From NCBI GenBank assembly GCA_050014495.1, contig JBEKDF010000015.1, positions 1-64,000 on the forward strand: a stretch of DNA of 64,000 nucleotides. Direction: 5' to 3'. Below are positions 1-50,127 of the stretch, piece by piece. Both the position numbers and the translations under genes were made by a program. Under the pieces are notes generated by a model. It did not search any database, was not told the origin of the DNA, and worked only from the letters and a program-made list of their open reading frames with translations. The first letter of the stretch is position 1. The number at the start of each line of letters is the position of its first letter. The DNA is from Candidatus Bathyarchaeia archaeon (GTDB lineage Archaea > Thermoproteota > Bathyarchaeia > TCS64).

Positions 1-191
1 TGAGTCATGACGAATCCATCTTGGAACATTAGGGCCATTCTAAAACACTATAGAATACTGGGGCCCTAATGGAATATATATCGCGTGCGTCGTCGCTACA
101 ATATATTAGGTTGTCTAAATCTGCGCGCGCGGATAAGATTTTCATCACACATCACTGTGTATGAATTAAAAAAACCGAACATGAAAAACGG

Positions 192-818
192 TTAGACATT
201 CATCCACTTATCGTAATGCAGTTTCTCCTCCAGCGATACAGCCTTCTGTTTAATCAGATAATCCTCAGGATAACCTATCGGAATAGCAGCCGCCACCTCG
301 TAGCCATCAGGCACACCCAACAACCACTTGAGGGAAGCCGTCTCGCGAGGCACACTGGTAACCCCATACAACCCCTCCGCCGCCATCGCCAACAAGATAT
401 TCTCAATACACATCCAAATCGAGGCCAAATCATTCAGATCATAAAGAATCTCACACTCCTTGAGGGGCTTCCTCAGCCTATAGCAGACGACGAGCAGCTC
501 CGGAGAACTCACCAGCATCTTCTCCTGAACGTGTAACGCCTTGCTGTACATCTCTTTCTGTAGTGGATCTGTCCAGTTACCTAGTGTCTTTTCAAGCTCC
601 ATCTCGTTCGTGATATTCTTCGCCTTTGAGACCAGCTCAGTGACTTTTTTCCTCTGCTCAGCGTCTTTAATGAGGATGAACTCCCACTGCCGTAGGTGGT
701 TATTTGAGGGGGCCTTGAGTCCTGCCTCTAGGATTCTTTGGAGTTTCTCTTTTTCTACGGGTTTTGTTTGGAACTTTCTTACGCTTCTTCTGTTGTTTAT
801 GGCTTCATAGAGATCCAA
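192..818 (-). CDS. Nitroreductase family protein (cassette cargo)
   Basis: N-terminal RRSVRKF and APSNNHLRQWEF nitroreductase motifs; IENILLAMAAEGLYG. Confidence 0.9.
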   Translation of the reverse strand: MDLYEAINNRRSVRKFQTKPVEKEKLQRILEAGLKAPSNNHLRQWEFILIKDAEQRKKVTELVSKAKNITNEMELEKTLGNWTDPLQKEMYSKALHVQEKMLVSSPELLVVCYRLRKPLKECEILYDLNDLASIWMCIENILLAMAAEGLYGVTSVPRETASLKWLLGVPDGYEVAAAIPIGYPEDYLIKQKAVSLEEKLHYDKWMNV

Positions 819-884
819 TTACCATTCGCCTCTCAACGTTTGTATGATATGTATGTATTTGCACGCGTGGTCCACCCATAAAAC

Positions 885-926
885 AATCACTGGTTGAGTA
901 TCAGGTGGAAGTGAGGATAAGGCTAT
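885..926 (+). repeat. Cassette-boundary site copy R1 (AATCACTGGTTGAGTATCAGGTGGAAGTGAGGATAAGGCTAT)
   Basis: Exact 17-mer core AGTGAGGATAAGGCTAT at 910-926; intergenic. Confidence 0.95.
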
Positions 927-964
927 AGCCGCAAACCCACACACACACTTGCTTACGATCACAA

Positions 965-1429
965 CTAACTAACACTAACCAGTATCCGTTTTTCCATGTA
1001 GACTCTGTCGTATCCCTCTTCAGATACAAGCCCAATATTCTTCCAACCCAGATGCTCGTAAATAACCTGATTCTCAACCATCATAACATTAGTGTAAAGA
1101 CGCATTACTCTATATCCCAACTTTAAAGCCTCAGACTCAGCGAAATCAATTAACTTTCCGCCAAACCCTCGACCCTGATACCTCGGCTTAATAGCAACAT
1201 TTTCAATCAGTAGATATTCCGTCTCAGGCACAAGAACAAGAACTCCCAGTAACTCAGACCCTAGACCTTCAAGGACCCAGATGTTCTTCTGTGTAACTGC
1301 CTCCACGTAATCTTCAAGCATTGGTGCGGGCTCCTTCCCTATTCTCTGTATGTAGAGGGTATACGCGTCTTTAATGCAGGCAGTTATCTCTGGAACGTCG
1401 TTGAGTACTGCACGTCGAATTTGGTGCAT
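965..1429 (-). CDS. GNAT family N-acetyltransferase (cassette cargo)
   Basis: NVAIKPRYQGRGFGGKL acetyl-CoA motif A; probable ATG at 1429 with TTAAATA box ~25 bp upstream. Confidence 0.9.
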   Translation of the reverse strand: MHQIRRAVLNDVPEITACIKDAYTLYIQRIGKEPAPMLEDYVEAVTQKNIWVLEGLGSELLGVLVLVPETEYLLIENVAIKPRYQGRGFGGKLIDFAESEALKLGYRVMRLYTNVMMVENQVIYEHLGWKNIGLVSEEGYDRVYMEKRILVSVS

Positions 1430-1461
1430 CGGTAATCTTATTTTATCATAAATATTTAACC

Positions 1462-1503
1462 ATTCACGAACACGAAAAGGTTGGGTTTGGGGGATAAGGC
1501 TAT
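1462..1503 (+). repeat. Site copy R2 (degenerate; ATTCAC...GGATAAGGCTAT)
   Basis: Exact GGATAAGGCTAT 1492-1503, with ATTCAC at the same 42-bp spacing as other copies. Confidence 0.8.
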
Positions 1504-2042
1504 GTCTCTGAAGAGCGTAGAATCCCAATTTGTCCAGGGTGCGTGACACGCCTCTGCTTATCCTCAGAGGAAAGAACCCCGTCTATCTTCTCCGCCAAGT
1601 ACTCCCAGTCATGCAAATAAATCATGCCCCACTCCTCTCTCCTGTACACCTCTACGATCGGCTTGAACTTGAACCACATAAGATGGACCCCCAGGCCAAC
1701 CCTCCACACGGTTTCCAAGTCTACTAAGCCAGTCCTGTACTGCCACCCGATCTCGTTGCATAGGTCGAAGAAGTGTTCGCGTAGGATGTAGTTCTCGGGG
1801 TTTACCCTCGAATCGTATTTTCTCTTGAAGTCGTCTGCGTCTGTCCACTGCATGGAGAGGAGCTCGGCGTAGTCTCTCGCCCCTTCGCGGCCGAATGTGG
1901 TGGTCATCAGGGCTAGCGAGAACGTTGCTTTTCTGTTCTTCGTCGTTTCCCTCAGGTTCACTATGTAGAACGCCGCTGCTACTAGTACTCCTGTGGCGGC
2001 TACCATGTAGTAGGCGGCCTGAATCTCACCTAGATCAACCAT
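1500..2042 (-). CDS. Membrane-anchored protein, DUF4760-like (paralog of 3444..3950)
   Basis: N-terminal TM helix then soluble helical domain (GWQYRTGLVD, WFKFKPIVEVYR, WEYLAE); stop codon lies inside site R2. Confidence 0.75.
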   Translation of the reverse strand: MVDLGEIQAAYYMVAATGVLVAAAFYIVNLRETTKNRKATFSLALMTTTFGREGARDYAELLSMQWTDADDFKRKYDSRVNPENYILREHFFDLCNEIGWQYRTGLVDLETVWRVGLGVHLMWFKFKPIVEVYRREEWGMIYLHDWEYLAEKIDGVLSSEDKQRRVTHPGQIGILRSSET

Positions 2043-2050
2043 AATCAATA

Positions 2051-2092
2051 ATTCACCTGATTACACTCAGGTAGAAGTGAGGATAAGACATT
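2051..2092 (+). repeat. Site copy R3 (ATTCACCTGATTACACTCAGGTAGAAGTGAGGATAAGACATT)
   Basis: AGTGAGGATAAG exact; ACCTGA/TCAGGT internal inverted repeat. Confidence 0.9.
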
Positions 2093-2248
2093 CGCCCGTC
2101 AAATACTTGTACGTTAGATGAGGCTAATGCCAAAGAGACTTTGGGATAAGATTTTCTGGTGTAATGTGAAACGTAGGAGAAGATTTTAATTAACAAAAAT
2201 CTTTATTCTTCAATGAACACGGAATAGATGACTCTTTGGTGATTCTGG

Positions 2249-3325
2249 ATGGATGAGGAATACCAGAGGCTCGCGGAACACTTAGACCACCTCCCAGACG
2301 GCTTCCCACCGAGTAAAACCTCAGCCGAGATACCCCTCCTAAAGAGACTCTTCACATCCGAAGAGGCAAAACTAGCTGTACATCTAACACTCAACAGAGA
2401 AGACGTACACACCATAGCGAGTAAGGCGAGCCTACCAGTGGAGAAAGTCAAGACCACCTTAGAAGAGATGGCCAGAAAAGGACTCATATTTCAAGCTCAG
2501 GAAGACGACCAAACAAAGTACCAAGCCGCACCATTCGTCATAGGAATCTACGAGTTCCAAGTAAACCGACTGACAGATGGCTTCCTCAAAGACCTGGGCA
2601 ACTACTGGAGCACCCAGGAGCAGCGCGACGAACCCAAGTCTATAAGCCAGATGAGGACCATCCCAATAAACGAGAGCATAGACACCCGACTCGAAGTACT
2701 ACCATACGAAAACGTCGAAGCACTAGTTGATGCCCACACTAAATTCGGGGTAGCATCATGCATCTGCAGGAGTAGAGCCAAGAAACTCGGCAAGGGATGC
2801 GACGCTCCCACTGAGACATGCCTATTATTTGGAGACTTCGCCGACTTCTACGTAAGAACTGGGAAAGGCAGATACATAACAAAGGATGAGGTCAAGGACC
2901 TACTTCATAAGGCAAATGAGGCAAACCTAGTCCTCAATCCAACAAACTCCAAGACTGTACAGGCGATATGCTGCTGCTGCGGATGCTGCTGTGGCATACT
3001 TAATGACCTCAAATACTCTCCTAACCCCTCTGAGGCATGCGCTAGCTCCTTCATCGCGCAACACGACGAATCAATATGCATAGCGTGCATGAAGTGCATC
3101 GACCGTTGCCAGATGGAGGCAATCACTGAGGACTCGGGCGTAGTCAAGTTCAACCAAAATAGATGCATAGGCTGCGGATTATGCGTGTCAACATGTCCAA
3201 CAGGGTCCATGAGCCTAAAGAGGAAATCTCAAGCGGACAAAGAGCTACCTGAGACATTCTTTGATACGTGGAGACTTAATGCACGGCAAAGAGAAGACGC
3301 CAATGTAGATACACACATGCATTAA
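2249..3325 (+). CDS. 4Fe-4S binding protein with N-terminal HTH-like region (inverted cassette cargo)
   Basis: CICR, CCCCGCCC and two ferredoxin motifs CIACMKCIDRC, CIGCGLCVSTCP. Confidence 0.9.
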   Translation: MDEEYQRLAEHLDHLPDGFPPSKTSAEIPLLKRLFTSEEAKLAVHLTLNREDVHTIASKASLPVEKVKTTLEEMARKGLIFQAQEDDQTKYQAAPFVIGIYEFQVNRLTDGFLKDLGNYWSTQEQRDEPKSISQMRTIPINESIDTRLEVLPYENVEALVDAHTKFGVASCICRSRAKKLGKGCDAPTETCLLFGDFADFYVRTGKGRYITKDEVKDLLHKANEANLVLNPTNSKTVQAICCCCGCCCGILNDLKYSPNPSEACASSFIAQHDESICIACMKCIDRCQMEAITEDSGVVKFNQNRCIGCGLCVSTCPTGSMSLKRKSQADKELPETFFDTWRLNARQREDANVDTHMH

Positions 3326-3397
3326 AACTATGCGTGTGCTTCAGTTACAGCCACCATGCAGAAGGTGGCTTGAATCTTTGCTGAATCAACCATTACA

Positions 3398-3438
3398 ATT
3401 CACTGCTTATGGTTAGGTGGAAGTTTGGATAAGGCTAT
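3398..3438 (+). repeat. Site copy R4 (ATTCACTGCTTATGGTTAGGTGGAAGTTTGGATAAGGCTAT)
   Basis: 15/17 match to core; between convergent gene ends. Confidence 0.92.
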
Positions 3439-3443
3439 TGAGC

Positions 3444-3950
3444 CTATGTCAGCAACTCGGGATGAGACGCCATGTAATCCATGAGTCTCCCGTAGACATA
3501 CTCCATCTCGCTCATGTAGCGACTATAATCGATCTCCTTTCTATACTTCTCAATCTCGGGCCTAAACTTCTCCCACAACCTCCTAGTCGGCCCAGCACAG
3601 TACAATGCGATCAGTTTAATGTCAACTAGATTCTCCCTGACGAGGACCCCGATCCCCTCCCACGTGGAGACGATTACTTGAAGTGACACTGCTTTTTCGG
3701 GATCGTTGATTCTCTTGGCTTTGAAGTCTTCGTAGCTATTCCATTTCGCTGAATCGATGTTTATTAGGTGTCTAGAAAATTCCTCGCTGCTGGTATTGCT
3801 GTGGAGCATCATGAAGAGTTGGGCTTCCCTCGTCTGCAGGGTCGCCTTCATGTTCCTCTGCTGGGATCGCAGGGTCATAATGTAGTAGATGGCCGCAACC
3901 GTCACGCTTGCCGCAGTGACCAATACTCCAATCGTCTGCGCATCGACCAT
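3444..3950 (-). CDS. Membrane-anchored protein, DUF4760-like (paralog of 1500..2042)
   Basis: TM helix VTAASVTVAAIYYI; WEGIGVLVRENLVD, LWEKFRPEIEKYR, MEYVY. Confidence 0.75.
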   Translation of the reverse strand: MVDAQTIGVLVTAASVTVAAIYYIMTLRSQQRNMKATLQTREAQLFMMLHSNTSSEEFSRHLINIDSAKWNSYEDFKAKRINDPEKAVSLQVIVSTWEGIGVLVRENLVDIKLIALYCAGPTRRLWEKFRPEIEKYRKEIDYSRYMSEMEYVYGRLMDYMASHPELLT

Positions 3951-3952
3951 AG

Positions 3953-3993
3953 AATCACTGGCTACAATCGGGTGGAAGTGAGGATAAGGCTAT
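3953..3993 (+). repeat. Site copy R5 (AATCACTGGCTACAATCGGGTGGAAGTGAGGATAAGGCTAT)
   Basis: Exact core at 3977-3993; fills almost the whole intergenic gap. Confidence 0.95.
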
Positions 3994-4004
3994 TGAAGAA
4001 GTAG

Positions 4005-4835
4005 CTACTTTACGAATCTAATGTCGAGACCGTTGACCTTCTCACGATCCAAAGCCACCATGTTCTCATTTGCCTCCCCGAGCAATCCATTCATCCTTAG
4101 AACCTTCTTCGCAGTACGCAGCGACTTGACACCTATGGACACGGATCTAATTGAGTAATCTCTGGAGGGCGTAAACCTCAGAGTCGGGCTCCTGCCAATC
4201 ATCCACGAATCCCCATCAGGCTTCAATGGACTGAGCAGGGTCTGCCAAGCCCTCATATCTCTCTTCACGTCCTTGACCCCCAACTCGATCTCCTTCACAG
4301 CCTTAGCCCCAAGCAAACCACCCCCAGCCGCATCAAACCTCGCCTTCATGATTCGGTTATGATCATCAAGATCCCTCGCCTCGGGAGCAGACGTGAAGGA
4401 CCTGAAGGCGAGCTGAGTAAACGTGCTGAAGTCGAGCATAATCTCCTTGAACAGTGGGGCTTGAAGCAGTACATCCCTACCCCACTCGGTCTCTTGGCCT
4501 GTCTCATCGGGCATCTTCGACGCATCGATCTTGTAGGAGATGCCTCTCTTATCGAGCTCTTTGATGCATCGATCGTAATTGATAGGTTGCATTTCTAAGA
4601 TCTGTAGCTTCGCTGGTTTACTGCTCATCAGGTAATCCTTGGGGTGGAACGTCAGAAACTTGAACCAGACGTTACCCATGTATATGCCTCCTCCTCTGAA
4701 TGATCCGTGGTCGGCTGGGGCGAAGTCCTCTGGGAGGCCTAGTGTGTTTGCGAATAGGTAGTGGAGTTTGTTTGCGTCTCCTGCGGTCTCAACTACGCCG
4801 TATATGCCTTGGATTCTCTTCACGATTGGGGCCAT
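4005..4835 (-). CDS. VOC/glyoxalase-like protein (cassette cargo)
   Basis: LFANTLGLP, GGIYMGNV, ELDKRGI, EIELGVKD pattern of VOC folds; start 4835 (ATG) or 4844. Confidence 0.6.
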   Translation of the reverse strand: MAPIVKRIQGIYGVVETAGDANKLHYLFANTLGLPEDFAPADHGSFRGGGIYMGNVWFKFLTFHPKDYLMSSKPAKLQILEMQPINYDRCIKELDKRGISYKIDASKMPDETGQETEWGRDVLLQAPLFKEIMLDFSTFTQLAFRSFTSAPEARDLDDHNRIMKARFDAAGGGLLGAKAVKEIELGVKDVKRDMRAWQTLLSPLKPDGDSWMIGRSPTLRFTPSRDYSIRSVSIGVKSLRTAKKVLRMNGLLGEANENMVALDREKVNGLDIRFVK

Positions 4836-4911
4836 AAAATTCACGATTTCTCATAGTATTATCATCATTTAACATTTACCTCAAATTTGGGAAAAATAGT
4901 TGTTCTCGAAT

Positions 4912-4937
4912 TCAGTTGGGAGTGAGGATAAGGCTAT
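4912..4937 (+). repeat. Site copy R6 (TCAGTTGGGAGTGAGGATAAGGCTAT; left arm lost)
   Basis: Exact core at 4921-4937; between divergent genes. Confidence 0.92.
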
Positions 4938-5026
4938 AGCCCCAAATGGCACAACCTGGTCCAATGAGAGCTGATTTTAAGGAAAAGTTATAACTGAATC
5001 AGAAGAACTCTAAACTGGTGTTATGA

Positions 5027-5515
5027 TTGCCATCTACTGGTCAAGCACCACCCCTAAACAGCGAAGAAATTGAATCAATGCTCGAAGAGAACCACTATTT
5101 GAGGATCTGCACCCACAACAGAGACGGAACCATACACGCCATGCCTGTTGCCTATAGGTACTTGAACGGTAAAATATTGATAATGTCCCTCATCAACAGC
5201 CGAAAAAACAGAAACATTGAACGAAACAATGACGTCACCGTGCTGGTTGATACAATGGACCCGTTGAGAGGTATTCTCATCTACGGTTTGGCGGAAATGG
5301 ACTATGACAATGTCTACGAACAGGTTCTTACAATTAATGAAACCAGCCCCGCATTCAGCGGCATGCCTAGAGAAAAGTTGGAGCGTGTCACCAGAGCCTA
5401 TGTAGACGCGTACAAACTCGCGATAGTAAAAATCATGCCACGACGCATCGTAACGTTCGACTTTACCAAAGATGAGGTTTGGGACAATTTCGTCAAAACT
5501 TATCTTCAGGATTAA
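5027..5515 (+). CDS. Pyridoxamine 5'-phosphate oxidase (FMN split-barrel) family protein (inverted cassette cargo)
   Basis: ICTHNRDGTIHAMPV, SRKNRNIERNNDVTV; own BRE/TATA GGAAAAGTTATAA at 4981-4993. Confidence 0.85.
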   Translation: MPSTGQAPPLNSEEIESMLEENHYLRICTHNRDGTIHAMPVAYRYLNGKILIMSLINSRKNRNIERNNDVTVLVDTMDPLRGILIYGLAEMDYDNVYEQVLTINETSPAFSGMPREKLERVTRAYVDAYKLAIVKIMPRRIVTFDFTKDEVWDNFVKTYLQD

Positions 5516-5547
5516 GGGAAACACGTGCGTATTTGCATCAACTATTC

Positions 5548-5588
5548 AATCACTGATTAGAGTCAGGTGGAAGTGAGGATAAGGCTAT
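5548..5588 (+). repeat. Site copy R7 (AATCACTGATTAGAGTCAGGTGGAAGTGAGGATAAGGCTAT)
   Basis: Exact core at 5572-5588; CACTGA/TCAGGTG bulged inverted repeat. Confidence 0.95.
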
Positions 5589-5642
5589 GACCCACACACA
5601 CAAACTAAGGATTCCAGAAAAAATTTAAAAAATGGATTTGAA

Positions 5643-5936
5643 CTACTTCTTCTTCTCTTTATAGTACTGCTCTACGAACTTTCCTGCATCAAGCAGAGGC
5701 ACGAACTTTAGCTTCCCTTCAGGCATGTAGTGGATCACGAGGGCGTTCAGCTGCTCCTCGCTAGGATCCTCGTATACTTGGACGCTTTTGAATTCTCCAC
5801 CGAAGCTATGGGATGCAAATGCAACCTTCGGGAACTTCTTCGATCCCTTTTCTCTATCAGCCATGGCAGACCTGAATTTCTCTATTATCTTTTCGAAGTC
5901 CTCAGGGCAGTACTCCAAAAAACTCATGACTTTCAC
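5643..5936 (-). CDS. Small hypothetical protein, DUF3303-like (cassette cargo)
   Basis: 97 aa ORF with RBS GAGGTGA (5941-5947); C-terminal KFVPLLD pattern. Confidence 0.65.
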   Translation of the reverse strand: MKVMSFLEYCPEDFEKIIEKFRSAMADREKGSKKFPKVAFASHSFGGEFKSVQVYEDPSEEQLNALVIHYMPEGKLKFVPLLDAGKFVEQYYKEKKK

Positions 5937-6091
5937 TTTATCACCTCACATCTCTTTTGGTACTTGTATAGCTCCCCAACCCGGAGCCGAGGTTCTACTA
6001 TTTTTTCATTGGAGCAGAACCTTGTTTGATGAGGGATAGGGCTTGCCTATAGTTTTATTGGTAAATAATCCAGAATTATTAGAATAATTTT

Positions 6092-6120
6092 GTATCAGGT
6101 GGAGGAGAGGATAAGGCTAT
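6092..6120 (+). repeat. Site copy R8 (GTATCAGGTGGAGGAGAGGATAAGGCTAT)
   Basis: 15/17 core match preceded by TCAGGTGG. Confidence 0.9.
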
Positions 6121-6257
6121 TGAGTGATTGATGTAGCTACCAGCAATTAGTAGGCAGGTTAAATCACATCAATCAAGTGTCAAATCTTCAGTTTCCCACT
6201 TGTGCCTAAAAAATTGGATAATTAATTTTCTTTTCCCCACTATTTATATATACTTTT

Positions 6258-7136
6258 CTATTCCACAACATTGCCAATTTCCTCAAGGAACTCTTTTAAA
6301 TGTAGGATATTTACAATACAAATATCCAGTTTTCTATGTTTGTTGAGAATAGAATGATCATTAATTACATTTTCCGATAGACTCACGGGCAACCATAAAG
6401 ATCGTGGAAGACTGAATCTATAAATTGCCCAAGGTACCTCAACCAAATTAATATCATTAACATTAGGAACCACTCCCTCTTCACTAATCTTTGAATTTGG
6501 AATATCCAAAACACAGATTTTAGCAGCTGTAGTTATTACTGGAAAATACAAACGACCCCTACCAGGCGATTCAATATTAGAAGACGCTCTTTTCATATAT
6601 GAAAAATCATCATTTATCACACCCAATGTCGCAATGCTAGCCTGTTTCGCCCCTTTTCTAATTTCACTATCCCCTGATCTTTTATCCTCATCACCTTCCT
6701 TACATAATTCATGGCTATCAACGGATATTGCATTTGCATAAATGCCTCGATCTGTTTGAAGACGAATCAAACTTTGACAGTGAGCCCAAGCTCTGTCCGT
6801 CGCACGATTATATTGTAAATGAAATTGAAAATCACCTCTACGCTTCGAGTCATCATGATGCGTAAGCACAAAAAATCCTCGTGTAGACAATTTTCGGAAT
6901 AATATCCATTTTTTATGTGAAGCCCGTCTAGCCTCGATCAAAGCGAATAAATTATCACGCCATGCCTTGAAGTCTATTGATGTTTCCTCAACTGGAAGGT
7001 TACTTGGATCAGGTAAGACAGAAACAGCGTAATCAATGTTAAAATTCCAGTGGACCTGTTCTAACTGTTCTGCAACTTTCATTTCAAAAAGGTAGCCCGT
7101 TTTTTCTAAGCCATCCCAATAATTAGAGCGTGACAT
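6258..7136 (-). CDS. Hypothetical protein, possible PD-(D/E)XK nuclease fold (cassette cargo)
   Basis: GYLFEMKVAEQL...SIDFKA...LIEARRA resembles the E...D...ExK nuclease signature; AT-rich. Confidence 0.55.
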   Translation of the reverse strand: MSRSNYWDGLEKTGYLFEMKVAEQLEQVHWNFNIDYAVSVLPDPSNLPVEETSIDFKAWRDNLFALIEARRASHKKWILFRKLSTRGFFVLTHHDDSKRRGDFQFHLQYNRATDRAWAHCQSLIRLQTDRGIYANAISVDSHELCKEGDEDKRSGDSEIRKGAKQASIATLGVINDDFSYMKRASSNIESPGRGRLYFPVITTAAKICVLDIPNSKISEEGVVPNVNDINLVEVPWAIYRFSLPRSLWLPVSLSENVINDHSILNKHRKLDICIVNILHLKEFLEEIGNVVE

Positions 7137-7325
7137 TATAGTAATCTAAGATATTTTTGTTAATAATGTTTATAAAATGTAGCATACTCACATTTGGCTG
7201 ACATTCACTCAACCGTCTCCTACTCTGATGTGCCTAGGATGCGCGAGCGCACTCACACTGAAAGTTTCTTTGGCGAATGGAAAAATCGTATAGTAAACGG
7301 GCCAAGCACATGAGCAACCTTTCCC

Positions 7326-7523
7326 CTAGTTGGATGCAAATTCAACAACTAGCAAAATAACTCCAACAAATGCCATTCCCATCCCAAGATAAATTGCCGT
7401 GTTCACGTCTATGAATCTGGTGTTAGTTTTAGATCTAATCTTCGTCACTAATGCGATTACTATTCCAGTGAGAAGTAAAATAATGCCTAGTCTACCAAGA
7501 ATCGAACTATACCACATGGACAT
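7326..7523 (-). CDS. Small 2-TM membrane protein
   Basis: 65 aa with two hydrophobic helices; TTTAAATA box at 7552-7560. Confidence 0.6.
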   Translation of the reverse strand: MSMWYSSILGRLGIILLLTGIVIALVTKIRSKTNTRFIDVNTAIYLGMGMAFVGVILLVVEFASN

Positions 7524-7624
7524 CTTTTTCGATAATTACTCAGTAATTGCTATTTAAATAGGTTAAAGACAAGCAACCCTGAGCCTCTTGATGGAGGGAC
7601 GGTGATATTGGCGCATAGAGATGT

Positions 7625-7648
7625 GGGGCGGAGTGAGGGTGAGGCTGT
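7625..7648 (+). repeat. Recombinase-proximal degenerate site copy R9 (GGGGCGGAGTGAGGGTGAGGCTGT)
   Basis: 14/17 core match at 7632-7648; all three differences are A>G transitions. Confidence 0.7.
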
Positions 7649-7890
7649 GAGGCCCCACGACATCTACGCGTGCTATTCCTGCGAGTTGAATAAAGTCACG
7701 CCATGCAAATACAGAAGGCGAGCCCGCTTCATGAGTAACCTGGACCAGTGGGCTAAATGCTCACACATATCTTAGTATGGGATGCGCGCGCGGATGATAG
7801 ATTATCTGCTTCATCCCTTTTGCGAGTTATGTCAACCATTAAAAGCGGGCGAGCTTAGCCTTGAGGAAAACTGGGCATATCCTTTGTAAT

Positions 7891-9270
7891 TTATTGATGA
7901 TGACCTTGGTCATTCAGGTTTTCCTCCTTTTCTGTTTTCGCCTCAAGGCCATAATCAGATAGGTTATTCATTATTTGATCAACCTCATCCCTAGATTCAT
8001 AGCCGAAGCCATGGTTCCATGCTATCACTTCCAGACATCCTCCTCTGCTAACTCTACACCTAATCTCCTTGGGTTTTCTAGGATAATACTTGCCACTGAG
8101 AACCTCGGGGAGTCTTTCACCGGCTAAATCCTTGAGGGGCTGAAGCATCCCCTTTTCCTCAAGACTTTTAGTTGTTCCGTCCGCCACTTTATTCTGTAGA
8201 ATCGTTATCTCCTGAGTTGTGAAGATTTGTTGGATGGTGTTTAGCTGGGCTTCGATCGAAGCCATGCGGGTTTGGTTGTTCCTCATCTCTGCGTCGTGGG
8301 CTTCAAGTTCCCTGATCTTAGCTTGAAGGTCCTCGACCTCCCCGGCGTCAACCTTCGAGGGGTCCTCTGAGAGAACGTTAAGCCACCTCTCTGCCTTGCG
8401 GTACTCCCTCCGGGTGTAGTCGATGTCCTCCATTGCCTTGTTGTAACCGAGGGGATCGACGACGTGTCCCATGAAGAACTCCGCCGCTAGGCTGTCGGCT
8501 CCGGACTTGTGCCACCTCGTCCTGAATGTGTCACGTAACTCATGGGGATTCTTGCCGTACCTCACACTTTTTCCTTGTCTAGTTTCGATGATTCCTAGTT
8601 TCTTCAGTGTCCAGGTCCAATACTGGGCGATGATCTTCTCGGTGATCGGTGTTCCCTTCTAATTTACGAAGATCGAACCCCCGACGTTAGGTCACGTCTT
8701 CATGTAGAACATTATGGCGTCTATAGCGTCGCGTCCGAGGAACGTATGGTATGAGCGCCTATTCTTCAGCTTCTTTCTGCCGGGAAGGTCAACCCTGATG
8801 GGTCGAACTCCAGCGTCTAGTTGCTTTTTAAGGTCAGCCAACCGGGCGTTGCTCCACTCCACCACCTCGCTGCATCCCATTCCTCCGGAGACCATGCATA
8901 GGAAGACCGCCCGGTAGAGTCTGTTGCTCTTAACAACCGCTTTTCTGATTTCATCATGGGTTAGGGAGCCGACGACCGGTGGCACTTCAACGCTGATCCT
9001 GAAACCCGGGTCGCGTGGAAGCTCAGCCCTATTATGCAGGAAGAAGGACTTCACTGCTGAGTAGTATCTCTCCTTGCTCTTCGCCCTACCCCTGATGGTT
9101 CTCATCCAGCCCTCAACGAGGTCGAGGACCCGATACCTGTCATCCCCCGCCGCCCTCTTCTGATAGGCTACAAGCTCATCGGGGGACAATCCCGATTGGT
9201 CTTCCCCATTCTCGGCCATCCACTCCATGAACTTCAGTAGCACATAGAAGTGTGCGAAAAAAGTGTTCAT
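7891..9270 (-). pseudogene. Tyrosine recombinase/integrase, interrupted by two in-frame stops (TGA 8692-8694, TAG 8659-8661); N-terminus probably truncated
   Basis: ORFs 8692..9423 and 7891..8565 share one frame; joined protein has YYSAVKSFF, LTHDEIRK, DLPGRKK, HELRDTFR (HxxR), FFMGH, LGYNK (Tyr nucleophile). Confidence 0.9.
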
Positions 9271-9447
9271 TTTAATACGGGACCGCCATGTAAATACCGT
9301 AGGACAGTGATACCAAGGGTGATTCAACAAACGTCGCGGAACGCTAGGCTCACACATACACTTCATCTCTATAGAATAATAGAACGTAGAGCTGTGAGTT
9401 TCAACAACGTTTTTATGAATCAACCCCGGCTAACTTGAGGCGATGCG

Positions 9448-10020
9448 ATGTTCAACTTAGTTACTCTTAAGGACACAATAAGAATAAGTCCGTCCAAATT
9501 TGGCCAACCTCTCGATGCCGCCGCCTACGATGAGCTCCGTGGCAAGTACGAAGGGCTCGTTGACGAGGAACTTGGCTACGTTATCTCAGTAATAAAGGTC
9601 GAAGTCAACCCCATCGGTCGCATCGTCCCAGGCGATGGTGGAACACACCACCAGGTTACTTTCAGTATCATGACCTTCTTCCCACAGCTCCAAGAGATCG
9701 TAGAGGGCGAAGTTGTAGAGGTCGCTGATTTTGGAACCTTCCTCAGGATAGGTCCAGTTGATGCCCTTCTCCACGTTAGCCAACTCATGGATGACTTCAT
9801 AAGTTACGACGAGAGGCAGGGCGTCCTCCTCGGGAAGGAGAGTGGACGAACCATCCAGAGAGGTGACCTCTTCAGGGTTAGGATGGTTGCTGTGAGCTTC
9901 CCCAAGGGAAGAAGCTCGGGTAAGATAGGTGTCACAGCTCGCCAACCTATGCTGGGAAAGATCGAATGGATAGAGACAGAGGTCAAGGCGATGGAAGCTC
10001 CCAAGGAGGAGAAGAAGTAA
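9448..10020 (+). CDS. rpoE1: DNA-directed RNA polymerase subunit E' (Rpo7)
   Basis: EGEVVEVADFGTFLRIGPVDALLHVSQ S1 domain; RQPMLGKIEW. Confidence 0.97.
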   Translation: MFNLVTLKDTIRISPSKFGQPLDAAAYDELRGKYEGLVDEELGYVISVIKVEVNPIGRIVPGDGGTHHQVTFSIMTFFPQLQEIVEGEVVEVADFGTFLRIGPVDALLHVSQLMDDFISYDERQGVLLGKESGRTIQRGDLFRVRMVAVSFPKGRSSGKIGVTARQPMLGKIEWIETEVKAMEAPKEEKK

Positions 10021-10205
10021 TGGCTCCGAAAGCATGCAGGACCTGCAAGATAATCACCGATGAAAACATTTGTCCCGTTTGCAAGAGCTCCGAGCTAAGC
10101 GAGGACTTTCTCGGCTTCGTCATCATACTCGACCCCTCAAAGAGTCAACTGGCCGAGAAGATGAAAATCAAAGAGGCGGGGCGATACGCCCTCAAGATCC
10201 GTTAA
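10020..10205 (+). CDS. spt4: Transcription elongation factor Spt4 (RpoE'')
   Basis: KACRTC...CPVC Zn ribbon, GRYALKIR; follows rpoE1. Confidence 0.95.
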   Translation: MAPKACRTCKIITDENICPVCKSSELSEDFLGFVIILDPSKSQLAEKMKIKEAGRYALKIR

Positions 10206-10257
10206 CAAACAGGACACGAGCCTCCCACAGATCAAGACTCTGTTTCTCCCGGAATCC

Positions 10258-10749
10258 ATGCGATACGAACTGAAGACACCACTTGGTGAACTTTATAGGG
10301 GTGAGCCAAAAGAAACAACCGCTCGCCTCAAAGAAAAATTCATGACGAAACCTCCACTTTTCGCCATCGTTGGGGACTTCGTCGCAGCTAACCTAATCGC
10401 TTGTGGGTTTTCACCTGATATAGTTGTGATCGATAATAAGACCCTCAGGGTCGAGGTTGAACCTGTAAAACATGGTATGAAGGAGATACAGGTTCCTAAC
10501 GAGGCTGCCACTATAAACGCCGAGGCATGGCTCGTTCTTCGAGCCGCGGTAATGCTTAAAAGGAGGTTAGCGGTAGTCGTGAAAGGTGAAGAGGACCTAC
10601 TGGTCCTCCCGCTGTTGGCTGAGATGCCCATTGGCTCGGTGATAGCCTACGGCCAGCCCCATGAGGGGCTTGTTGTAGTGACCGTGTCCGAGGAGAGGCG
10701 GGATTGGGCGCGGGAATTCCTCAACCGAATGGAGATGAAAAAACAGTGA
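10258..10749 (+). CDS. GTP-dependent dephospho-CoA kinase (DUF359)
   Basis: VGDFV, IDNKTLR, GEEDLL, YGQPHEG motifs; conserved position. Confidence 0.9.
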   Translation: MRYELKTPLGELYRGEPKETTARLKEKFMTKPPLFAIVGDFVAANLIACGFSPDIVVIDNKTLRVEVEPVKHGMKEIQVPNEAATINAEAWLVLRAAVMLKRRLAVVVKGEEDLLVLPLLAEMPIGSVIAYGQPHEGLVVVTVSEERRDWAREFLNRMEMKKQ

Positions 10750-40138: not shown

Positions 40139-40573
40139 GTGAAACATATGCCTCACGATCTGAGAAGAACACGCAGATACCGCGGATCGAGATACTGCGG
40201 ATGGGGCCAGGTCGGCCAGCACCGCAAGTCCGGTAGCCGAGGAGGAAAAGGCTTCGCCGGAGGCCATAAACATTTCTGGATCCAAACCGTGAAATTTAAC
40301 CCAAACAGATATAGACGCATCGGCTTCGTTCCACCCTCATCACTTAAACCGCTACCTGCGACGATAAATATCGGGGAACTAGAGGACCTCGCGGTGAAGC
40401 TCCTAGGTACAGAAGCTATGAAAAGTGGAATGGAACTTGACCTAGCTGAGGTTGGAATAGGCAAGCTTCTCGGAAGGGGAAGCATATCAATAGCATTAAA
40501 GGTCCGAGTTGAATCCGCCTCCGCGAACGCTAAAAGTAAACTAGAGGAAGCCGGCGGCTCTATAGTAGAGTGA
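40139..40573 (+). CDS. rpl15: 50S ribosomal protein L15
   Basis: RGSRYCGWG, GSRGGKG, KLLGRG. Confidence 0.96.
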   Translation: MKHMPHDLRRTRRYRGSRYCGWGQVGQHRKSGSRGGKGFAGGHKHFWIQTVKFNPNRYRRIGFVPPSSLKPLPATINIGELEDLAVKLLGTEAMKSGMELDLAEVGIGKLLGRGSISIALKVRVESASANAKSKLEEAGGSIVE

Positions 40574-41988
40574 TAGCTTTGCGCTTCCTCGAGCTCTTTA
40601 AACCCATCTCCCGGGTCATACCGGAGGTTAAGCCACCGGAGAGGAAGGTTAGCTTCCAAAATAGGCTCATCTGGACACTCCTGGCTCTACTTATCTATTT
40701 CATAATGTCAGAGATCCCTCTCTATGGTATTCCCTTAACAACGTCAGGTGACACCTTCACGGCATATAGGGTCATCTTCGCCTCCGCGAAGGGAACTCTC
40801 ATGGAGCTCGGAATAGGCCCAATTGTCACCGCTGGACTAATAATTCAGCTACTCGCCGGTTCAGACATAATATCATTCGATAGAAGCAGTGCAGAGGACC
40901 GAGGACTATTCACGACCGCGAGCAAATTCTTCTCAATAGTCATGATCATAATTCAGGCTTCATTATACATCGTCAGTGGCCAGTATGGCTCAGTTACCTT
41001 AACCAAGGCACTTCTGATATTCGCACAACTTCTCTTTGCAGGTCTGATAATAATGATGCTCGACGAGCTGGTGCAAAAGGGTTGGGGTATCGGTAGCGGA
41101 ATTAGTCTCTTTATCGTTGGGGGTATCACAGCGAACATTTGGTGGATGAGCTTCAGTTTCATAAACTACGATGGTAGGGCATATGGCGCTATAATTGCAT
41201 TCTTCCAAGGGATCTGGACTAAATTACCTATTTATAGCTGGTTCTTCCGTTCAAATGGAGCTCCCGATATGATCGGGTTCTTCACAACAATAGCTGTTTT
41301 CCTCGTCGTTATATACATGGAGGGTATGCGTGTTGAGTTGCCCATCAGCCATAGTCAATACAGAGGCTATCGTGGCAGAATGCCCATTAAACTTCTATAT
41401 GTATCAAACATTCCAGTAATACTCGCATATGCTCTCTTCGCAAACTTCCAAATGGTTGGTCAGTTCGTCTGGAGCAAATGGAACCCTGCAAGCGATAATA
41501 ACTGGCTCAGTTGGCTCGGAACTTATACCTATTCATCAAGTGGCCAACCCGTTGTGAACAGCGGATTAGTCTACTATATTACTTCACCAGGCCACCTCCA
41601 AGGGGTTTTTAATGACCCGATCCGAGCCTTGGTCTATGCATTAATTGTCATATTTTTCTGCATAATATTCAGTATGACCTGGCTTGAAATAGGCGGGTTA
41701 GGAGCCGAGGACATGGCAGACCAGCTTCTAGAGTCAGGCATGCAGGTTCCTGGTTTCAGGAGGAATAAGCAGCCTATAGTGACTTTACTGAATAGGTATA
41801 TCCCAACAATCACTATAATTGGTGGAGCTATTGTGGGGGCACTTGCGGCGATATCTGATTTCTTTGGAGTGTTTGGAAGTGGAATGGGTGCCTTATTAGC
41901 AGTCAGCATCCTGTACCAGTACTATCAGACAATGGTGCAGGAACAGATTGCAGATCTATACCCCTTCCTGCGTGGAACCTTCGAGTAA
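40570..41988 (+). CDS. secY: Preprotein translocase subunit SecY
   Basis: GTLMELGIGPIVTAG, KGWGIGSGISLFI, YVSNIP. Confidence 0.98.
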   Translation: MIALRFLELFKPISRVIPEVKPPERKVSFQNRLIWTLLALLIYFIMSEIPLYGIPLTTSGDTFTAYRVIFASAKGTLMELGIGPIVTAGLIIQLLAGSDIISFDRSSAEDRGLFTTASKFFSIVMIIIQASLYIVSGQYGSVTLTKALLIFAQLLFAGLIIMMLDELVQKGWGIGSGISLFIVGGITANIWWMSFSFINYDGRAYGAIIAFFQGIWTKLPIYSWFFRSNGAPDMIGFFTTIAVFLVVIYMEGMRVELPISHSQYRGYRGRMPIKLLYVSNIPVILAYALFANFQMVGQFVWSKWNPASDNNWLSWLGTYTYSSSGQPVVNSGLVYYITSPGHLQGVFNDPIRALVYALIVIFFCIIFSMTWLEIGGLGAEDMADQLLESGMQVPGFRRNKQPIVTLLNRYIPTITIIGGAIVGALAAISDFFGVFGSGMGALLAVSILYQYYQTMVQEQIADLYPFLRGTFE

Positions 41989-42271
41989 ATCGGGATCCTA
42001 AATCTTTTTTTCTTAATAATAATTTTTTTTTATTGATTTTTAATTATTAATTTGTCATACTAGAATAAATATTAACTATTCAAGTTTGGTATTTAATATT
42101 GAAAAAAAGTGGGAGAAGACTTTTATTACTATTTTTTTTAACGGATAACAGCAAGAAAAACCGGAATACGTGCGATTGAGACCGTATAAAAAGCATACGG
42201 GAAAAGTATATTAACTATAGGTAAACACGGAACCTTTTTCAGGTTATTACCTCGATATAGGCTCGTTCAAA

Positions 42272-43564
42272 ATGTACCAGCCACCACGAGGTACCCGTGA
42301 TTTCCTTCCTGATGAGATGTACAAGAGGAACTGGGTGCTTGACCAGATACGCGAGGTCTATGAATCCTACGGCTTTGAACCTTTAGGAACTCCAGCTTTT
42401 GAGAGTTGGGAACTCCTCAAATTGAAGAGCGGAGAGGACGTAATTAACCAGATTTATTACTTTAAAGATAAAGCCGACAGAGAACTCGGGCTTAGGTTTG
42501 ATCTTACAACGAGCTTAGCACGTGTGGTGGCTGTGCATCGCGAGCTTCAGATGCCATTCAAGAGATATGCGATGGGTACTGTCTGGAGATACGAGAATCC
42601 AAGTGAGAAACGTTTCAGAGAGTTCTGGCAGGCTGACGCAGACACAGTAGGAGTGAGTGACTCTATAGCTGATGCAGAAGTCCTTTCGGTTGCAGTGGAT
42701 TGTCTAAAGAAGATGGGATTTTCTGGTTTTGTGATTAAGCTCAATGATAGGCGAATACTCGAAGCGTTCATCAAGCAAGCTGGGATACCACAAGATCGTG
42801 TGTTGGATGCAATCAGAGCTGTAGATAAACTTTTGAAAGTAGGAAAGGAGGGGGTTATCAAAGAACTCATAAAAATGTCTATACAGGAGGAGTCTGCAAT
42901 GTGGCTCTTAGATTCGCTATCACTAACTGGCACACCCAACAATGTTCTCGTAGAGACCGAAAAGAAACTTATGGATTCTCAAGCGGGGCTGAAGGGATTG
43001 AAAGCTTTAAAAGATTTAGTTGAGTACGCCAAGTCATTTGACTACAATAAATATATCGATATTGAGCTCAGCCTCGCTAGAGGTCTAGACTACTATACAG
43101 GACCGGTTTTTGAGGTTCTTGCTAAGGGTTATGAGGACTATGGAAGTATAGCTGGAGGGGGCAGATATGATGGTATCATCAACCTTTTGGGAGGTGAAAA
43201 TACACCTGCCACAGGGATATCCTTTGGCATCGATCGGCTCGTCCCGTTAATTGAAATGAAGGGGGGCTTCAACGACATTGAACTTGGAGTAGATGTGTTA
43301 GTCGCTCCAATTTCAGCTGTTGTGAAAGGTGAAGCAATTAAAGTTGCCCAAGAACTGAGGGCAGTTGGTATCTCCACTATAATCGACCTACTAGGTAGAA
43401 GTTTCTCTAAACAGTTAGAATATGCGAATAAGAAGGGTGTCAGAAAAGTTGTGATAGTCGGCAAGCAGGAACTTGAAGAGGGTTGTTTAACAATAAAGGA
43501 CATGAAAACAGGGGATCAGCTTAAGGTTAAGCGTTCTCGTTTACTCGAGATCATCAAATCCTAG
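42272..43564 (+). CDS. hisS: Histidine--tRNA ligase
   Basis: PRGTRDF, RGLDYYTG, GGGRYD. Confidence 0.97.
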   Translation: MYQPPRGTRDFLPDEMYKRNWVLDQIREVYESYGFEPLGTPAFESWELLKLKSGEDVINQIYYFKDKADRELGLRFDLTTSLARVVAVHRELQMPFKRYAMGTVWRYENPSEKRFREFWQADADTVGVSDSIADAEVLSVAVDCLKKMGFSGFVIKLNDRRILEAFIKQAGIPQDRVLDAIRAVDKLLKVGKEGVIKELIKMSIQEESAMWLLDSLSLTGTPNNVLVETEKKLMDSQAGLKGLKALKDLVEYAKSFDYNKYIDIELSLARGLDYYTGPVFEVLAKGYEDYGSIAGGGRYDGIINLLGGENTPATGISFGIDRLVPLIEMKGGFNDIELGVDVLVAPISAVVKGEAIKVAQELRAVGISTIIDLLGRSFSKQLEYANKKGVRKVVIVGKQELEEGCLTIKDMKTGDQLKVKRSRLLEIIKS

Positions 43565-44092
43565 TCTATCAGTTCCAAGCTTATTCAGGCTATAATATAC
43601 GAGTTCTCCCCTCCTATCTATCACAGCAAGTTTTAGCGTCCTTCCTGAGTTCTTCACACTGACGAGTATTTCTTCAATGTGACCTAGGTTCTCCGACACT
43701 CCCTCGACAAGAGTATATAATTCATAGCTTGGGGCTTTCTTAGGATAAGCGCCACGTTCATAGACCCTAAAAGAAACTCTATTCTTCGATGTTGATTTCG
43801 CTACGAAACCTCTACCTCGAATGTCCTTATAAATGATATACCTAGTCCATAACAGAATATCTGCTATTAGCTCTCGACTGAGGATCTCTTGAAATGAGAG
43901 AATTCGTTTTTCTTTTTCTTCTATAATTGTGAGACGTTCTTTCTCTACTAAATAAAGGGCTTCATATGGTTCTAAGATATAACGCCTCTTCTCGCTAATA
44001 TGCCCATAACCGTCTTGTAAGAGACTATCTGCCTCTCCAATCGAAGGAACTAGTATTGTCGAGTTGTCATAGACGGCATTTGCCTGTTGCAT
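43541..44092 (-). CDS. endA: tRNA splicing endonuclease subunit (possibly non-catalytic)
   Basis: EALYLVE, YKDIRGRGF, FRVYERG, AVIDRRGELVYY. Confidence 0.8.
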   Translation of the reverse strand: MQQANAVYDNSTILVPSIGEADSLLQDGYGHISEKRRYILEPYEALYLVEKERLTIIEEKEKRILSFQEILSRELIADILLWTRYIIYKDIRGRGFVAKSTSKNRVSFRVYERGAYPKKAPSYELYTLVEGVSENLGHIEEILVSVKNSGRTLKLAVIDRRGELVYYSLNKLGTDRLGFDDLE

Positions 44093-44224
44093 GAAAGTAG
44101 ATTGTATTTTATGTGAATAAATGCTTATCACATTATTTTTTAGGAAAAGTTCCTTCTATTTACTCTAGCTTATACAGTGTTAAAAGTGATCTAAAAAACA
44201 AAACTATGCTTTAATTAACAAGAA

Positions 44225-44581
44225 TTACTGCTCAGTTTTTTTTCTAATTTCCCATCGACTATCTCTACCTTCTCTTATCCAAGAACCTCCCAATGAGCGC
44301 ATGGTATCATTTATTGGTCCCCATAAATCACCAAGGAACTTTTTTGGGCTCACTAGAATTGCTTCCTCTCCATCCTCTATATTTAGAAGGCTTATATCAA
44401 TGCCTGCAGTTTTCAACTTCTCTTCAAAACTGGAGGGAGGCCAACTCTCAGTTTCTTCCTCTTTTTCCGCTTCTACATGTTTAGCTACGTTTGTAGACTT
44501 TCCGACAGAGAGAATTATTCCTATCTTGGAACCGCAGTCTGGACATGTGAGCCAAATGACTTTGGATTCTTTATCACTCAT
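44225..44581 (-). CDS. Hypothetical protein with N-terminal CPDC knuckle
   Basis: LTCPDCG; C-terminal LGGSWIREG. Confidence 0.65.
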   Translation of the reverse strand: MSDKESKVIWLTCPDCGSKIGIILSVGKSTNVAKHVEAEKEEETESWPPSSFEEKLKTAGIDISLLNIEDGEEAILVSPKKFLGDLWGPINDTMRSLGGSWIREGRDSRWEIRKKTEQ

Positions 44582-45164
44582 TGGAGGGGCCACCAGGTGT
44601 GGTTTACAATCAATTGGATTATTAAAGCTCTCTACCAATTTGTATAGGAATACTGGAAGCTGAGAAAAATTATTATAAGATATATTACTATTCTTATTCG
44701 GAGGGTTCGTTTGAGCACTCAGGTCCAAGAGTTTAGTTGTCCTTATTGTCCTAGGAAGTCAGCAAGTCCGGGTGGTGTAAGATTTCATGTTAAGCTTACA
44801 CACCCAGAAAAGCTGGAAGAATTTAATGCAGTCTATCTCCCTAAACTGGTCTCTCAGTTTAAAGAGATAAATCCTGAGACCTAATAGATTATCTCCTATC
44901 CGTTTTTTTATACACTCTTGGATAGATTTTATGGCTCTAATCTTGAAGGTATACATTTTATAAGGCCTAAGCAAGTGTCACCGATCTAGGCCCGATCATC
45001 GTATACTTTTTTCTACGACATGCAAGTTTGATGAAAGATGAACGTGGCCTAACTAGGTGGATCAGTTAATCGAAGCGAGACATTGGCCAAGAATCGTGTC
45101 CATGGCGTTTTTCACCCTTAGCCAACGATTTTTAACCTCCGTTGACGACCTTTATTCGATTTCA

Positions 45165-45890: not shown

Positions 45891-45892
45891 CC

Positions 45893-46672: not shown

Positions 46673-46714
46673 ATATTAATTTACGTCTATAATATCTGAG
46701 ATAAAAAATGAAGT

Positions 46715-47911: not shown

Positions 47912-48011
47912 AGAGCCTCTACTCTGACTCTATATCCTAATCTTTTACGTTTTCTGGTACATAGAAGATGTTATCTAGATTTAATTGGGGATGATTACTG
48001 AGGGTTTTCTG

Positions 48012-48974: not shown

Positions 48975-49029
48975 AGAATACGATAAACTCTTTTTTATGT
49001 CTCATAATGATTGAACAATACCTCTGATT

Positions 49030-50019: not shown

Positions 50020-50127
50020 AACTTTCCTCTAATAAATGACCTGTTTCTTTTTATCATTTTTCAGTGATTATAGCAAGTTTAATATTCTTTTTTTTTCTGA
50101 ATATTGTTTTAGGGGCTTTGATACCAT

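Follow-up and report, generated by a model that had tools for sequence, protein, structure and literature searches.

Casposons are elements defined by a solo Cas1, a family B DNA polymerase (PolB), inverted ends and a target duplication (PMC4046053; PMC6614799; PMC9939771). Cassettes of the promoter early stem-loop (PeSL) kind, described in T4-type phages, are single accessory genes headed by a repeated promoter that serves as the swap point, with no dedicated recombinase (PMC2839356; PMC4122927). Integron arrays and clusters of attC sites lacking integrases (CALINs), including archaeal ones, consist of tandem short genes in shuffled order with co-oriented, genome-specific repeats, spread over many contigs (PMC9668308). 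Here we analyze a repeat array located at positions 885-6122 of a 64,000-nucleotide stretch of DNA (the window in this text) from Candidatus Bathyarchaeia archaeon (assembly GCA_050014495.1, contig JBEKDF010000015.1). The initial annotation of the window regarded the repeat as a Xer-like site with a bulged hairpin. Our sequence comparisons favour another explanation, which we consider probable: the repeat would be a promoter-leader module of the DUF4760 family, present in about 180 copies and reshuffled inside, likely by homology, and the 13-bp core of the module would be the target of solo-Cas1 elements.

Like casposons, the elements in question have a Cas1 outside any CRISPR-cas locus, terminal inverted repeats and a direct repeat of the target. 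They differ from casposon families 1-4 in that the bounded elements contain no PolB. In this respect, and in having no C-terminal extension and being nearest to 4n06, they are like the proposed PolB-less casposon "family 5" (PMC9755687), a placement made by shared features and not by a tree. For Methanosarcina casposons, tandem stacks at a single target and isolated ends have been described (PMC4779613), and a 13-bp duplication containing ATAA is described for family 1 of Ca. Nitrosopumilus koreensis, although ATAA is at positions 5-8 there and at 2-5 here (PMC8464041). Unlike the known casposons, the elements have short C/A-rich tracts of two kinds as ends, and they include many solo ends and a 564-bp cargo-only copy. 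Their target is a dispersed, multi-copy word made of a B recognition element (BRE) and a TATA box, and not a tRNA gene, aEF-2 or one intergenic site.

The ordinary cassettes of the array resemble PeSL cassettes in the features named above. They differ in belonging to a cellular archaeal chromosome, in having about 180 copies and in carrying BRE-TATA in place of sigma-70 boxes; there is no conserved terminator stem-loop in the repeat or conserved right flank, and the cassettes are known from assembled contigs, not from mini-circles. Co-oriented tandem gene cassettes with reordering are found here as in integrons and CALINs. Unlike integron sites, the repeat is not a folded single-strand attC with conserved pairing, and it stands at the 5' end of the gene and holds a promoter. 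Bathyarchaeia are not mentioned in the main text of the paper on archaeal integrons (PMC9668308). A literature search, which left subscription journals mostly uncovered, found no report on Bathyarchaeia casposons, promoter-targeting casposases or this repeat, and none linking a DUF4760 promoter repeat with PolB-less Cas1 elements.

The assembly of the genome under study (G000; G0xx and G1xx denote other genomes, Lxxx pooled loci and Cxx contigs) comprises 3.1 Mb in 92 contigs and is 96% complete. The window is the start of contig C15, and the array may extend past that start. The genes at the side of the array (RpoE1, DUF359, small ribosomal proteins) are archaeal, and the named records that share the repeat are Bathyarchaeia. 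Eight co-oriented copies, R1-R8, have their core ends at 926, 1503, 2092, 3438, 3993, 4937, 5588 and 6120. A pattern search of the window with up to three mismatches gave nine matches against 0.61 expected, the ninth being a degenerate copy at 7633. A profile search found 180 copies in the whole genome and none in the reversed genome; an additional 41 cores lack the usual left arm (one in the control). Of 138 neighbouring pairs of sites less than 3 kb apart, 127 share their orientation and 11 lie on opposite strands; the median spacing is 639 bp. The 26-base pattern is present in 11 of the 17 genomes of the genus and in none of the 43 others searched. Before counting, 22 single pattern matches in unrelated organisms were excluded, as the rest of the site is absent there.

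We number the repeat backwards from the last T of GGCTAT (-1). The initial annotation correctly described the fixed distance from the word AWTCAC to the core end, which in six of the copies (R1-R5 and R7) is 40-41 nt, or 41-42 if both ends are counted; the right flanks that it quoted are accurate as well. The proposed right part, AGTGAGGATAA followed by GGCTAT, is exact in four of the eight window copies. Its edge lies slightly further to the right than was stated: conservation reaches 2-3 bases beyond GGCTAT (T/G, then G), and the flank past that is not conserved. The 6-mer itself is variable at -5 and -4. R2, whose left arm is G/T-rich and unlike the others, was not set apart. The signature of the arm varies with the genome: it is GTGA in G000 and CTCA in both G009 and G011, while G010 and G001 have another version, 22 bases long. 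Such genome-specific forms suggest that the copies are homogenised within lineages.

Taken on the minus strand, the repeat looks like a promoter with a leader. The end of the supposed Xer arm reads as a TATA box, GGCTAT with the two following bases as a BRE, which lies upstream of TATA in archaeal promoters (PMC5777992), and AWTCAC as a ribosome-binding site: it is the reverse of GTGA, a word that peaks 8-10 nt before start codons genome-wide. We learned a promoter motif, S-A-W-A-A-N-N-N-T-T-W-W-A, from 1473 site-free upstream regions of G000. The site scores 5.4 with this motif on the coding strand and 2.4 on the other strand, compared with a native median of 3.3 and a random 95th percentile of 4.7. 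The motif is in register with positions +1 to -11, where its purine part corresponds to the GGCTAT side and TTWW to the end of the supposed Xer arm; the variable bases -5/-4 coincide with its free positions. Because the motif fits the repeat in register, the right edge of the repeat can be understood as the upstream end of the BRE.

The genes that follow the repeat agree with this reading. A reading frame begins within 120 nt on the minus strand at 133 of 221 sites, and 83 of these 133 frames belong to a single family, DUF4760. The start lies 43-47 nt from the core edge in 71 of the 133, mainly in DUF4760-headed copies, and native leadered promoters of G000 peak 44-47 nt ahead of the start codon. 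In five other genera the motif precedes 35 of 39 DUF4760 genes at a median position of -46, with different letters but the same pattern, and it is found inside genes in 3 of 39 cases. Sufficient flank is available for 181 copies of G000: 86 of them stand before a DUF4760 gene, 39 before a decayed head and 12 before the ribosome-binding word only, while 44 have none of these; R1, R4 and R7 of the window are DUF4760 stubs. The repeat is likely to be the promoter and leader module (BRE, TATA box, 15-20 conserved bases and ribosome-binding site) of a greatly expanded family of DUF4760 membrane proteins, and many of its copies would be stubs remaining after the deletion of a DUF4760 gene.

DUF4760 has 92 matches in G000 and is present in 44 of the 70 genomes of the host family. 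The 92 paralogues share an N-terminal hydrophobic helix, have a variable helical domain and are 30-50% identical. A structure model (predicted local distance difference test, pLDDT, 88) gave no reliable fold match, the best Z being 9.4 at 7.7 A root-mean-square deviation to helical bundles, and the search of a defence library yielded a single weak match (E 0.003). In the literature search, one paper that mentions DUF4760 was listed. DUF4760 heads are often cut at alternating GC runs (862-870, 3330-3340 and 5520-5530 in the window, and many other loci). For 24 of 114 upstream frames in G000, the gene to the right of the site stops at a TAG inside the core, as at 1500-1502 of the window.

The second layer of the reading concerns Cas1. 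In the pooled set the left arm is G/T-rich at 54 sites and the right arm C/A-rich at 109, and 30 of the 37 CCCCAAACCC tracts in G000 adjoin a core. This genome has six Cas1 matches with no PolB nearby, and five of the six lie within ~1.5 kb of an element-end tract. In relatives, 4 of 16 Cas1 loci consist of a left tract, Cas1 and a right tract with a 13-bp direct repeat outside:

G027:C86, 6.2 kb: CATAAAGTTATTA twice, agreeing at 13/13, a word that differs from the others.
G016:C20, 3.4 kb: 13-bp direct repeat agreeing at 13/13.
G016:C13, 6.1 kb: direct repeat agreeing at 11/13.
G016:C10, 4.7 kb: ends of the CA type, direct repeat agreeing at 11/13.

Among 33 proteins from the Cas1 loci there is neither PolB nor any other cas family; the PolB matches in five genomes lie elsewhere. 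The Cas1 of G000:C80 is intact, with the conserved Glu, His and Glu aligned to 4n06, and in the Cas1 of G016:C13 the first Glu is Lys. The closest solved relative is 4n06 and not the M. mazei casposase 6opm, a relationship taken from the best solved-structure matches and not from a tree.

Of the 88 tracts, 71 have on their outer side a 13-mer whose promoter-motif score exceeds the 95th percentile, with the peak exactly at register 0 and at most 28 passing when the 13-mer is slid by one base. Among the 34 outside 13-mers with four or more differences from the array consensus, 18 also pass, and in other genera and families 18 of 26 element ends adjoin a 13-mer that passes. A flank is shared with an ordinary-arm site by 5 of 26 right ends, and the switch is at the core edge. 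Solo-Cas1 elements thus likely insert at the 13-bp BRE-TATA core and duplicate it. At the G027 element, a host frame of 261 codons begins 46 nt after the right copy of the duplicated word.

To follow the exchange of ordinary cassettes we pooled 772 distinct sites, taken from G000, from stretches of eight relatives and from metagenome loci. Among pairs matched at 92% flank identity, 19 have just the left flank in common, 22 just the right flank and 2 both, so that 41 of 43 have a new partner. The marker at -5 tracks the left flank in 5 of 16 pairs and the right flank in 12 of 17; for the marker at -27 the counts are 12 of 16 (left flank) and 6 of 17 (right flank). Since the markers from -33 to -27 follow the left flank, and -5/-4 mostly the right one, the exchange falls inside -26 to -6. 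Some left-flank changes end in GC runs, where a deletion is possible. The role of the repeat as a junction at which neighbouring genes are exchanged is supported by these sequence pairs. Assembled contigs of four runs, compared with positions 1-10500, contain joints mostly from paralogous copies, and crossovers were not mapped with them.

A promoter could also be all that the repeat is, namely a promoter and operator for one regulator whose arrays arise by tandem duplication and deletion, with no special role in recombination. The spacing to start codons is indeed fixed, 125 of 181 sites of G000 stand beside a DUF4760 gene or head, and several swapped left flanks end in GC runs resembling deletion scars. 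However, this explanation accounts neither for the new partners of 41 of the 43 recurring flanks nor for element ends that adjoin the core on both sides at a fixed register, and we find it hardly credible.

The cores on the two sides of ordinary cassettes differ by 2.46 mismatches, compared with 2.46 for random cores (244 pairs). Because they are no more alike than random ones, we rejected an origin of ordinary cassettes by successive duplications. An inverted second end was found on ordinary cassettes in 1 doubtful case of 772. As for the agent, host homologous recombination or strand annealing has, in our estimate, roughly an even chance; a casposase is possible but not likely, and a tyrosine recombinase is improbable.

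Solo Cas1 could itself reshuffle the ordinary cassettes, with staggered cuts at two cores, rejoining, and an ordinary arm replacing the element end, which would produce an integron-like array with gene-sized spacers. Cas1 is the sole enzyme tied to the core, and an ordinary arm and an element end interchange exactly at the core edge. Some hybrid arms start in the manner of an element end. Of 165 element ends, 7, besides one true site, contain a subterminal stretch whose likeness to the arm exceeds the 99th percentile of shuffles. In the pair L056/L158 the break coincides exactly with the far edge of the 13-mer. The M. mazei casposon was reported to leave a single target on excision, and staggered cutting of two targets was proposed for it (PMC10359463). 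Opposed to this are the random level of core similarity, the missing second ends, and genomes in which the arrays occur apart from Cas1: no Cas1 match accompanies the promoter-headed DUF4760 arrays of G021 (a single contig) and G010, or the 43 sites of G011, which is 88% complete. We regard reshuffling by Cas1 as unlikely. The broader proposal of a polymerase-less casposase that targets the BRE-TATA box and also cuts and rejoins promoter-headed cassettes, i.e., of a Cas1-driven integron or a CRISPR-like array of whole-gene spacers, is doubtful, though it deserves slightly more credit.

Core similarity, the missing second ends and the Cas1-free DUF4760 arrays are the reasons why we prefer a two-layer order of events. 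The promoter module would be the older layer, within which ordinary cassettes are exchanged by homology-driven recombination in a PeSL-like manner, and Cas1 insertion a second layer aimed at the promoter. The G-rich 3' ends of an element would be joined by Cas1 to the two core strands at points 13 bases apart. Such an insertion may leave the host gene its promoter, and repeated insertion could lead to stacks of the end-core-end type.

Several observations weigh against this two-layer reading. The near-invariance of 26 bases over 180 copies exceeds the need of a promoter, and the motif, weak and AT-rich, is passed by 13 of 39 control strands in the other genera as well. The swap pairs are few and non-independent, with markers too sparse to separate one bond from a spread of exchange points. 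Crossovers spare the leader and the start of the gene, similar as these are, a pattern for which plain homologous recombination is a poor explanation. On the Cas1 side, 12 of 16 loci have no full pair of ends (one end, remnants or none), and a host gene lies at promoter distance for about half of the 10 junctions checked. Outside the genus the duplicated word is mostly a palindrome, TAAA-N-TTTA, and the likeness of the target to promoters may be partly incidental. Left-to-right end pairs number only six, and their words are identical in 2 compared with 1.3 expected, i.e., show no excess; left ends are mostly followed by an ordinary site (23) and rarely by a right end (4). Finally, no empty allele of the R1-R2 segment, described below as a mini-element, was seen.

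If the two-layer reading is true, a Cas1 transposase targets a core promoter word and inserts without silencing the host gene, and dozens of natural junctions define its 13-bp target and short ends. It would also be a case of cassettes swapped at their own repeated promoter in a cellular archaeon. Tandem arrays of casposons are the proposed ancestors of CRISPR arrays; with the duplicated target present in ~200 copies between gene-sized units, the idea of a casposase as a cassette recombinase can be tested in G000.

The features of the window are as follows.

192..818, minus strand: nitroreductase gene (PF00881), cargo to the left of R1.
885..928, minus strand: R1 promoter module (core 916-928, arm ~895-915, ribosome-binding word 885-890).
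929..1492, no strand assigned: probable non-autonomous copy of a Cas1 element, 564 bp; the flanking direct 13-mers agree at 11/13.
929..979, plus strand: left end of the mini-element (C/A tract 929-948, subterminal stretch 952-979).
965..1411, minus strand: GNAT acetyltransferase gene within the mini-element, with its own TATA-like word and its stop in the subterminal stretch.
1479..1505, plus strand: R2, i.e., right end of the mini-element (inverted G/T tract 1479-1492) and second core (1493-1505).
1500..2042, minus strand: DUF4760-family gene (weak match, E 0.005), stop codon inside the R2 core.
2051..2094, minus strand: R3 promoter module of the 1500..2042 gene, the only window copy that folds well.
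2115..2156, no strand assigned: recurrent short module with two degenerate core-like words, ahead of the plus-strand Fe-S gene.
2249..3325, plus strand: gene of a 4Fe-4S/helix-turn-helix protein, cargo in the opposite orientation.
3328..3440, minus strand: R4 promoter module (3398-3440) and a DUF4760-like stub of 21 codons (3328-3393).
3444..3950, minus strand: intact DUF4760 gene, 168 aa (E 5e-13), with a long N-terminal helix and a helical domain.
3953..3995, minus strand: R5 promoter module of the 3444..3950 gene.
4005..4844, minus strand: gene of 279 aa with no family match and its own TATA-like word.
4912..4946, minus strand: R6, arm and core (4927-4939) with no leader, then a 7-base remnant of an element end.
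5027..5515, plus strand: pyridoxamine 5'-phosphate oxidase-like gene, cargo in the opposite orientation.
5548..5602, minus strand: R7 promoter module (5548-5590) with a decayed DUF4760 head, then an element end of the CA type (5591-5602).
5643..5936, minus strand: gene of 97 aa from a small family that recurs beside sites.
6090..6122, minus strand: R8, arm and core without a leader, the final copy of the array.
6258..7136, minus strand: low-GC frame of 292 aa that separates the array from the integrase; Pfam, NCBIfam and PADLOC gave no match.
7891..9423, minus strand: tyrosine-recombinase pseudogene with two in-frame stops (8692-8694, 8659-8661), not tied to the repeat.

The segment between R1 and R2 is the window's example of the second layer. 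Its stretch 952-979 agrees with the end of the Cas1 element of G016:C13 at 26 of 28 bases, with a score of 24, the best of 3000 random stretches scoring 15. As R1 is followed by the tract and this matching subterminal stretch, and R2 is preceded by the inverted tract, positions 929-1492 with the acetyltransferase gene are likely a non-autonomous copy of a Cas1 element, presumably moved by Cas1 acting in trans. The DUF4760 gene of R1 appears to be trimmed to a stub that ends in a GC run.

Arm-like subterminal stretches include 952-979 of the window, L019 12763-12790, and G000 C30 near 8010 and C24 near 4340; they hint at shared ancestry or a shared binding protein. Modules of the 2115-2156 type (40-45 bp, a short inverted repeat amid core-like words) occur beside or between many sites, e.g., G000 C7 91904-91984, C75 3814-3910 and C32 19880, and are sometimes the sole content between two sites 80-96 bp apart. 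A divergent promoter unit is one possible identity of such a module, a minimal element another.

Xer/dif sites and the one-armed sites of integrative mobile elements exploiting Xer (IMEX) contain an 11-mer ending in ATAA beside a 6-mer, and the repeat resembles them. On the reading of the initial annotation, a tyrosine recombinase of the Xer or IntI type would bind a one-armed site with a folded hairpin, with strand exchange at GGCTAT. In favour of this, the units are co-oriented tandem single genes (median spacing 639 bp), the exchange maps beside GGCTAT, and G000 has 13 tyrosine-recombinase (PF00589) matches of several families, a number of them near arrays (one of the 13 is a spurious Fe-S protein). 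The quoted match to the dif arm at 8 of 11 positions is true for six of the eight copies, and 5.9% (1561/26619) of the other 11-mers of G000 ending in ATAA do equally well. The crossover claim held in so far as the exchange adjoins GGCTAT, to its left and within ~21 conserved bases; as a 6-bp Xer overlap GGCTAT fails, since this 6-mer is unlike between swap partners about half the time.

The remark that a conserved second arm is absent was accurate: compared with the inverted left arm, the right side agrees at a mean of 3.3 of 11 positions, with 4 of 171 sites reaching 7, and the symmetric site GGATAA-N6-TTATCC does not occur in the G000 assembly. In other genera ATAA is lost from the TATA-like variants. 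No family of tyrosine recombinases recurs beside the sites across genomes; those adjacent to sites belong to different families, and a XerA-like gene on G000 C40 is present in 1 of 17 genus genomes. PF00589 has no match in G011, with its 43 sites, or in G015 and G004, these assemblies being incomplete. Three recombinase sequences from near the arrays were scored with the integron-integrase model, and the best reached 26 bits against a cut-off of 265. The idea that DNA is captured at relaxed tyrosine-recombinase sites is not supported, and the whole Xer/IntI explanation, weakened further by the hairpin results below, is very improbable. A Xer/dif site in the strict sense was rejected: the repeat differs from dif and IMEX-type sites in its missing second arm, variable 6-mer, hundreds of copies and lack of a recombinase that tracks it. 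The integrase beside the array was also rejected as the enzyme. Its gene has two stops, which recur with no letters differing in a contig of run X3 spanning 6554-10500, and its family is found beside sites only in G000.

The bulged hairpin was expected to be a shared feature of the repeat. In the window R3 alone has a good fold (-4.9 kcal/mol); R7 reaches -2.1 kcal/mol, and R4, R6 and R8 have none. The median fold energy of 594 pooled copies is no better than that of shuffles retaining the ribosome-binding word (TCAC), and for 210 gene-headed copies the median is -1.2 kcal/mol versus -1.4 kcal/mol for shuffles. Covariation, on which the initial annotation had made the hairpin depend, was absent from the pooled copies: altered bases of the 3' arm are matched by their partner in 25 of 178 cells versus 24.8 expected, and in 407 copies the 40 column pairs that covary most include no stem pair. 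Positions 1-10000 of the window have no Rfam match. With no excess of folding and no covariation, we rejected the hairpin as a recombination substrate. The partial pairing would arise by chance, from the reverse of the ribosome-binding word matching GGTGG in the arm.

Other candidates were also set aside. C/A tracts as repair scars written by a polymerase were dropped, as the tracts were found to be paired ends around Cas1 genes. Rolling-circle, IS200/IS605 and reverse-transcriptase routes, considered for a likeness to nick sites, have no PF02486, PF04986, PF01797 or PF00078 match in G000. A viral attachment site was rejected, neither the site nor Cas1 being matched in viral contigs.

Small genes recur in the Cas1 elements (L470, L471, L472, L019, L027), namely a 200-aa frame before cas1 and a basic protein of 110-130 aa, with no Pfam match; one of these elements encodes a protein with a weak match to the SduA C-terminal part. 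The same element ends are found in other Bathyarchaeia families (G172, G151, G154, G141, G050, G028), often as end-word-end stacks, which surround the 13-bp palindrome TAAA-N-TTTA. In G000:C18, positions 40386-50429 contain a recombinase gene, a capsid-like frame of 300 aa (recognized by eye only) and a truncated Cas1; this cluster may be a small provirus bordered by the remnant of a casposon. The tyrosine-recombinase pseudogene of the window starts at least 25 bp from rpoE1. Just past its 3' end, at 7622-7660, a degenerate copy of the repeat lies inside a short inverted repeat, and a similar stretch is present in G000:C34 near 21560.

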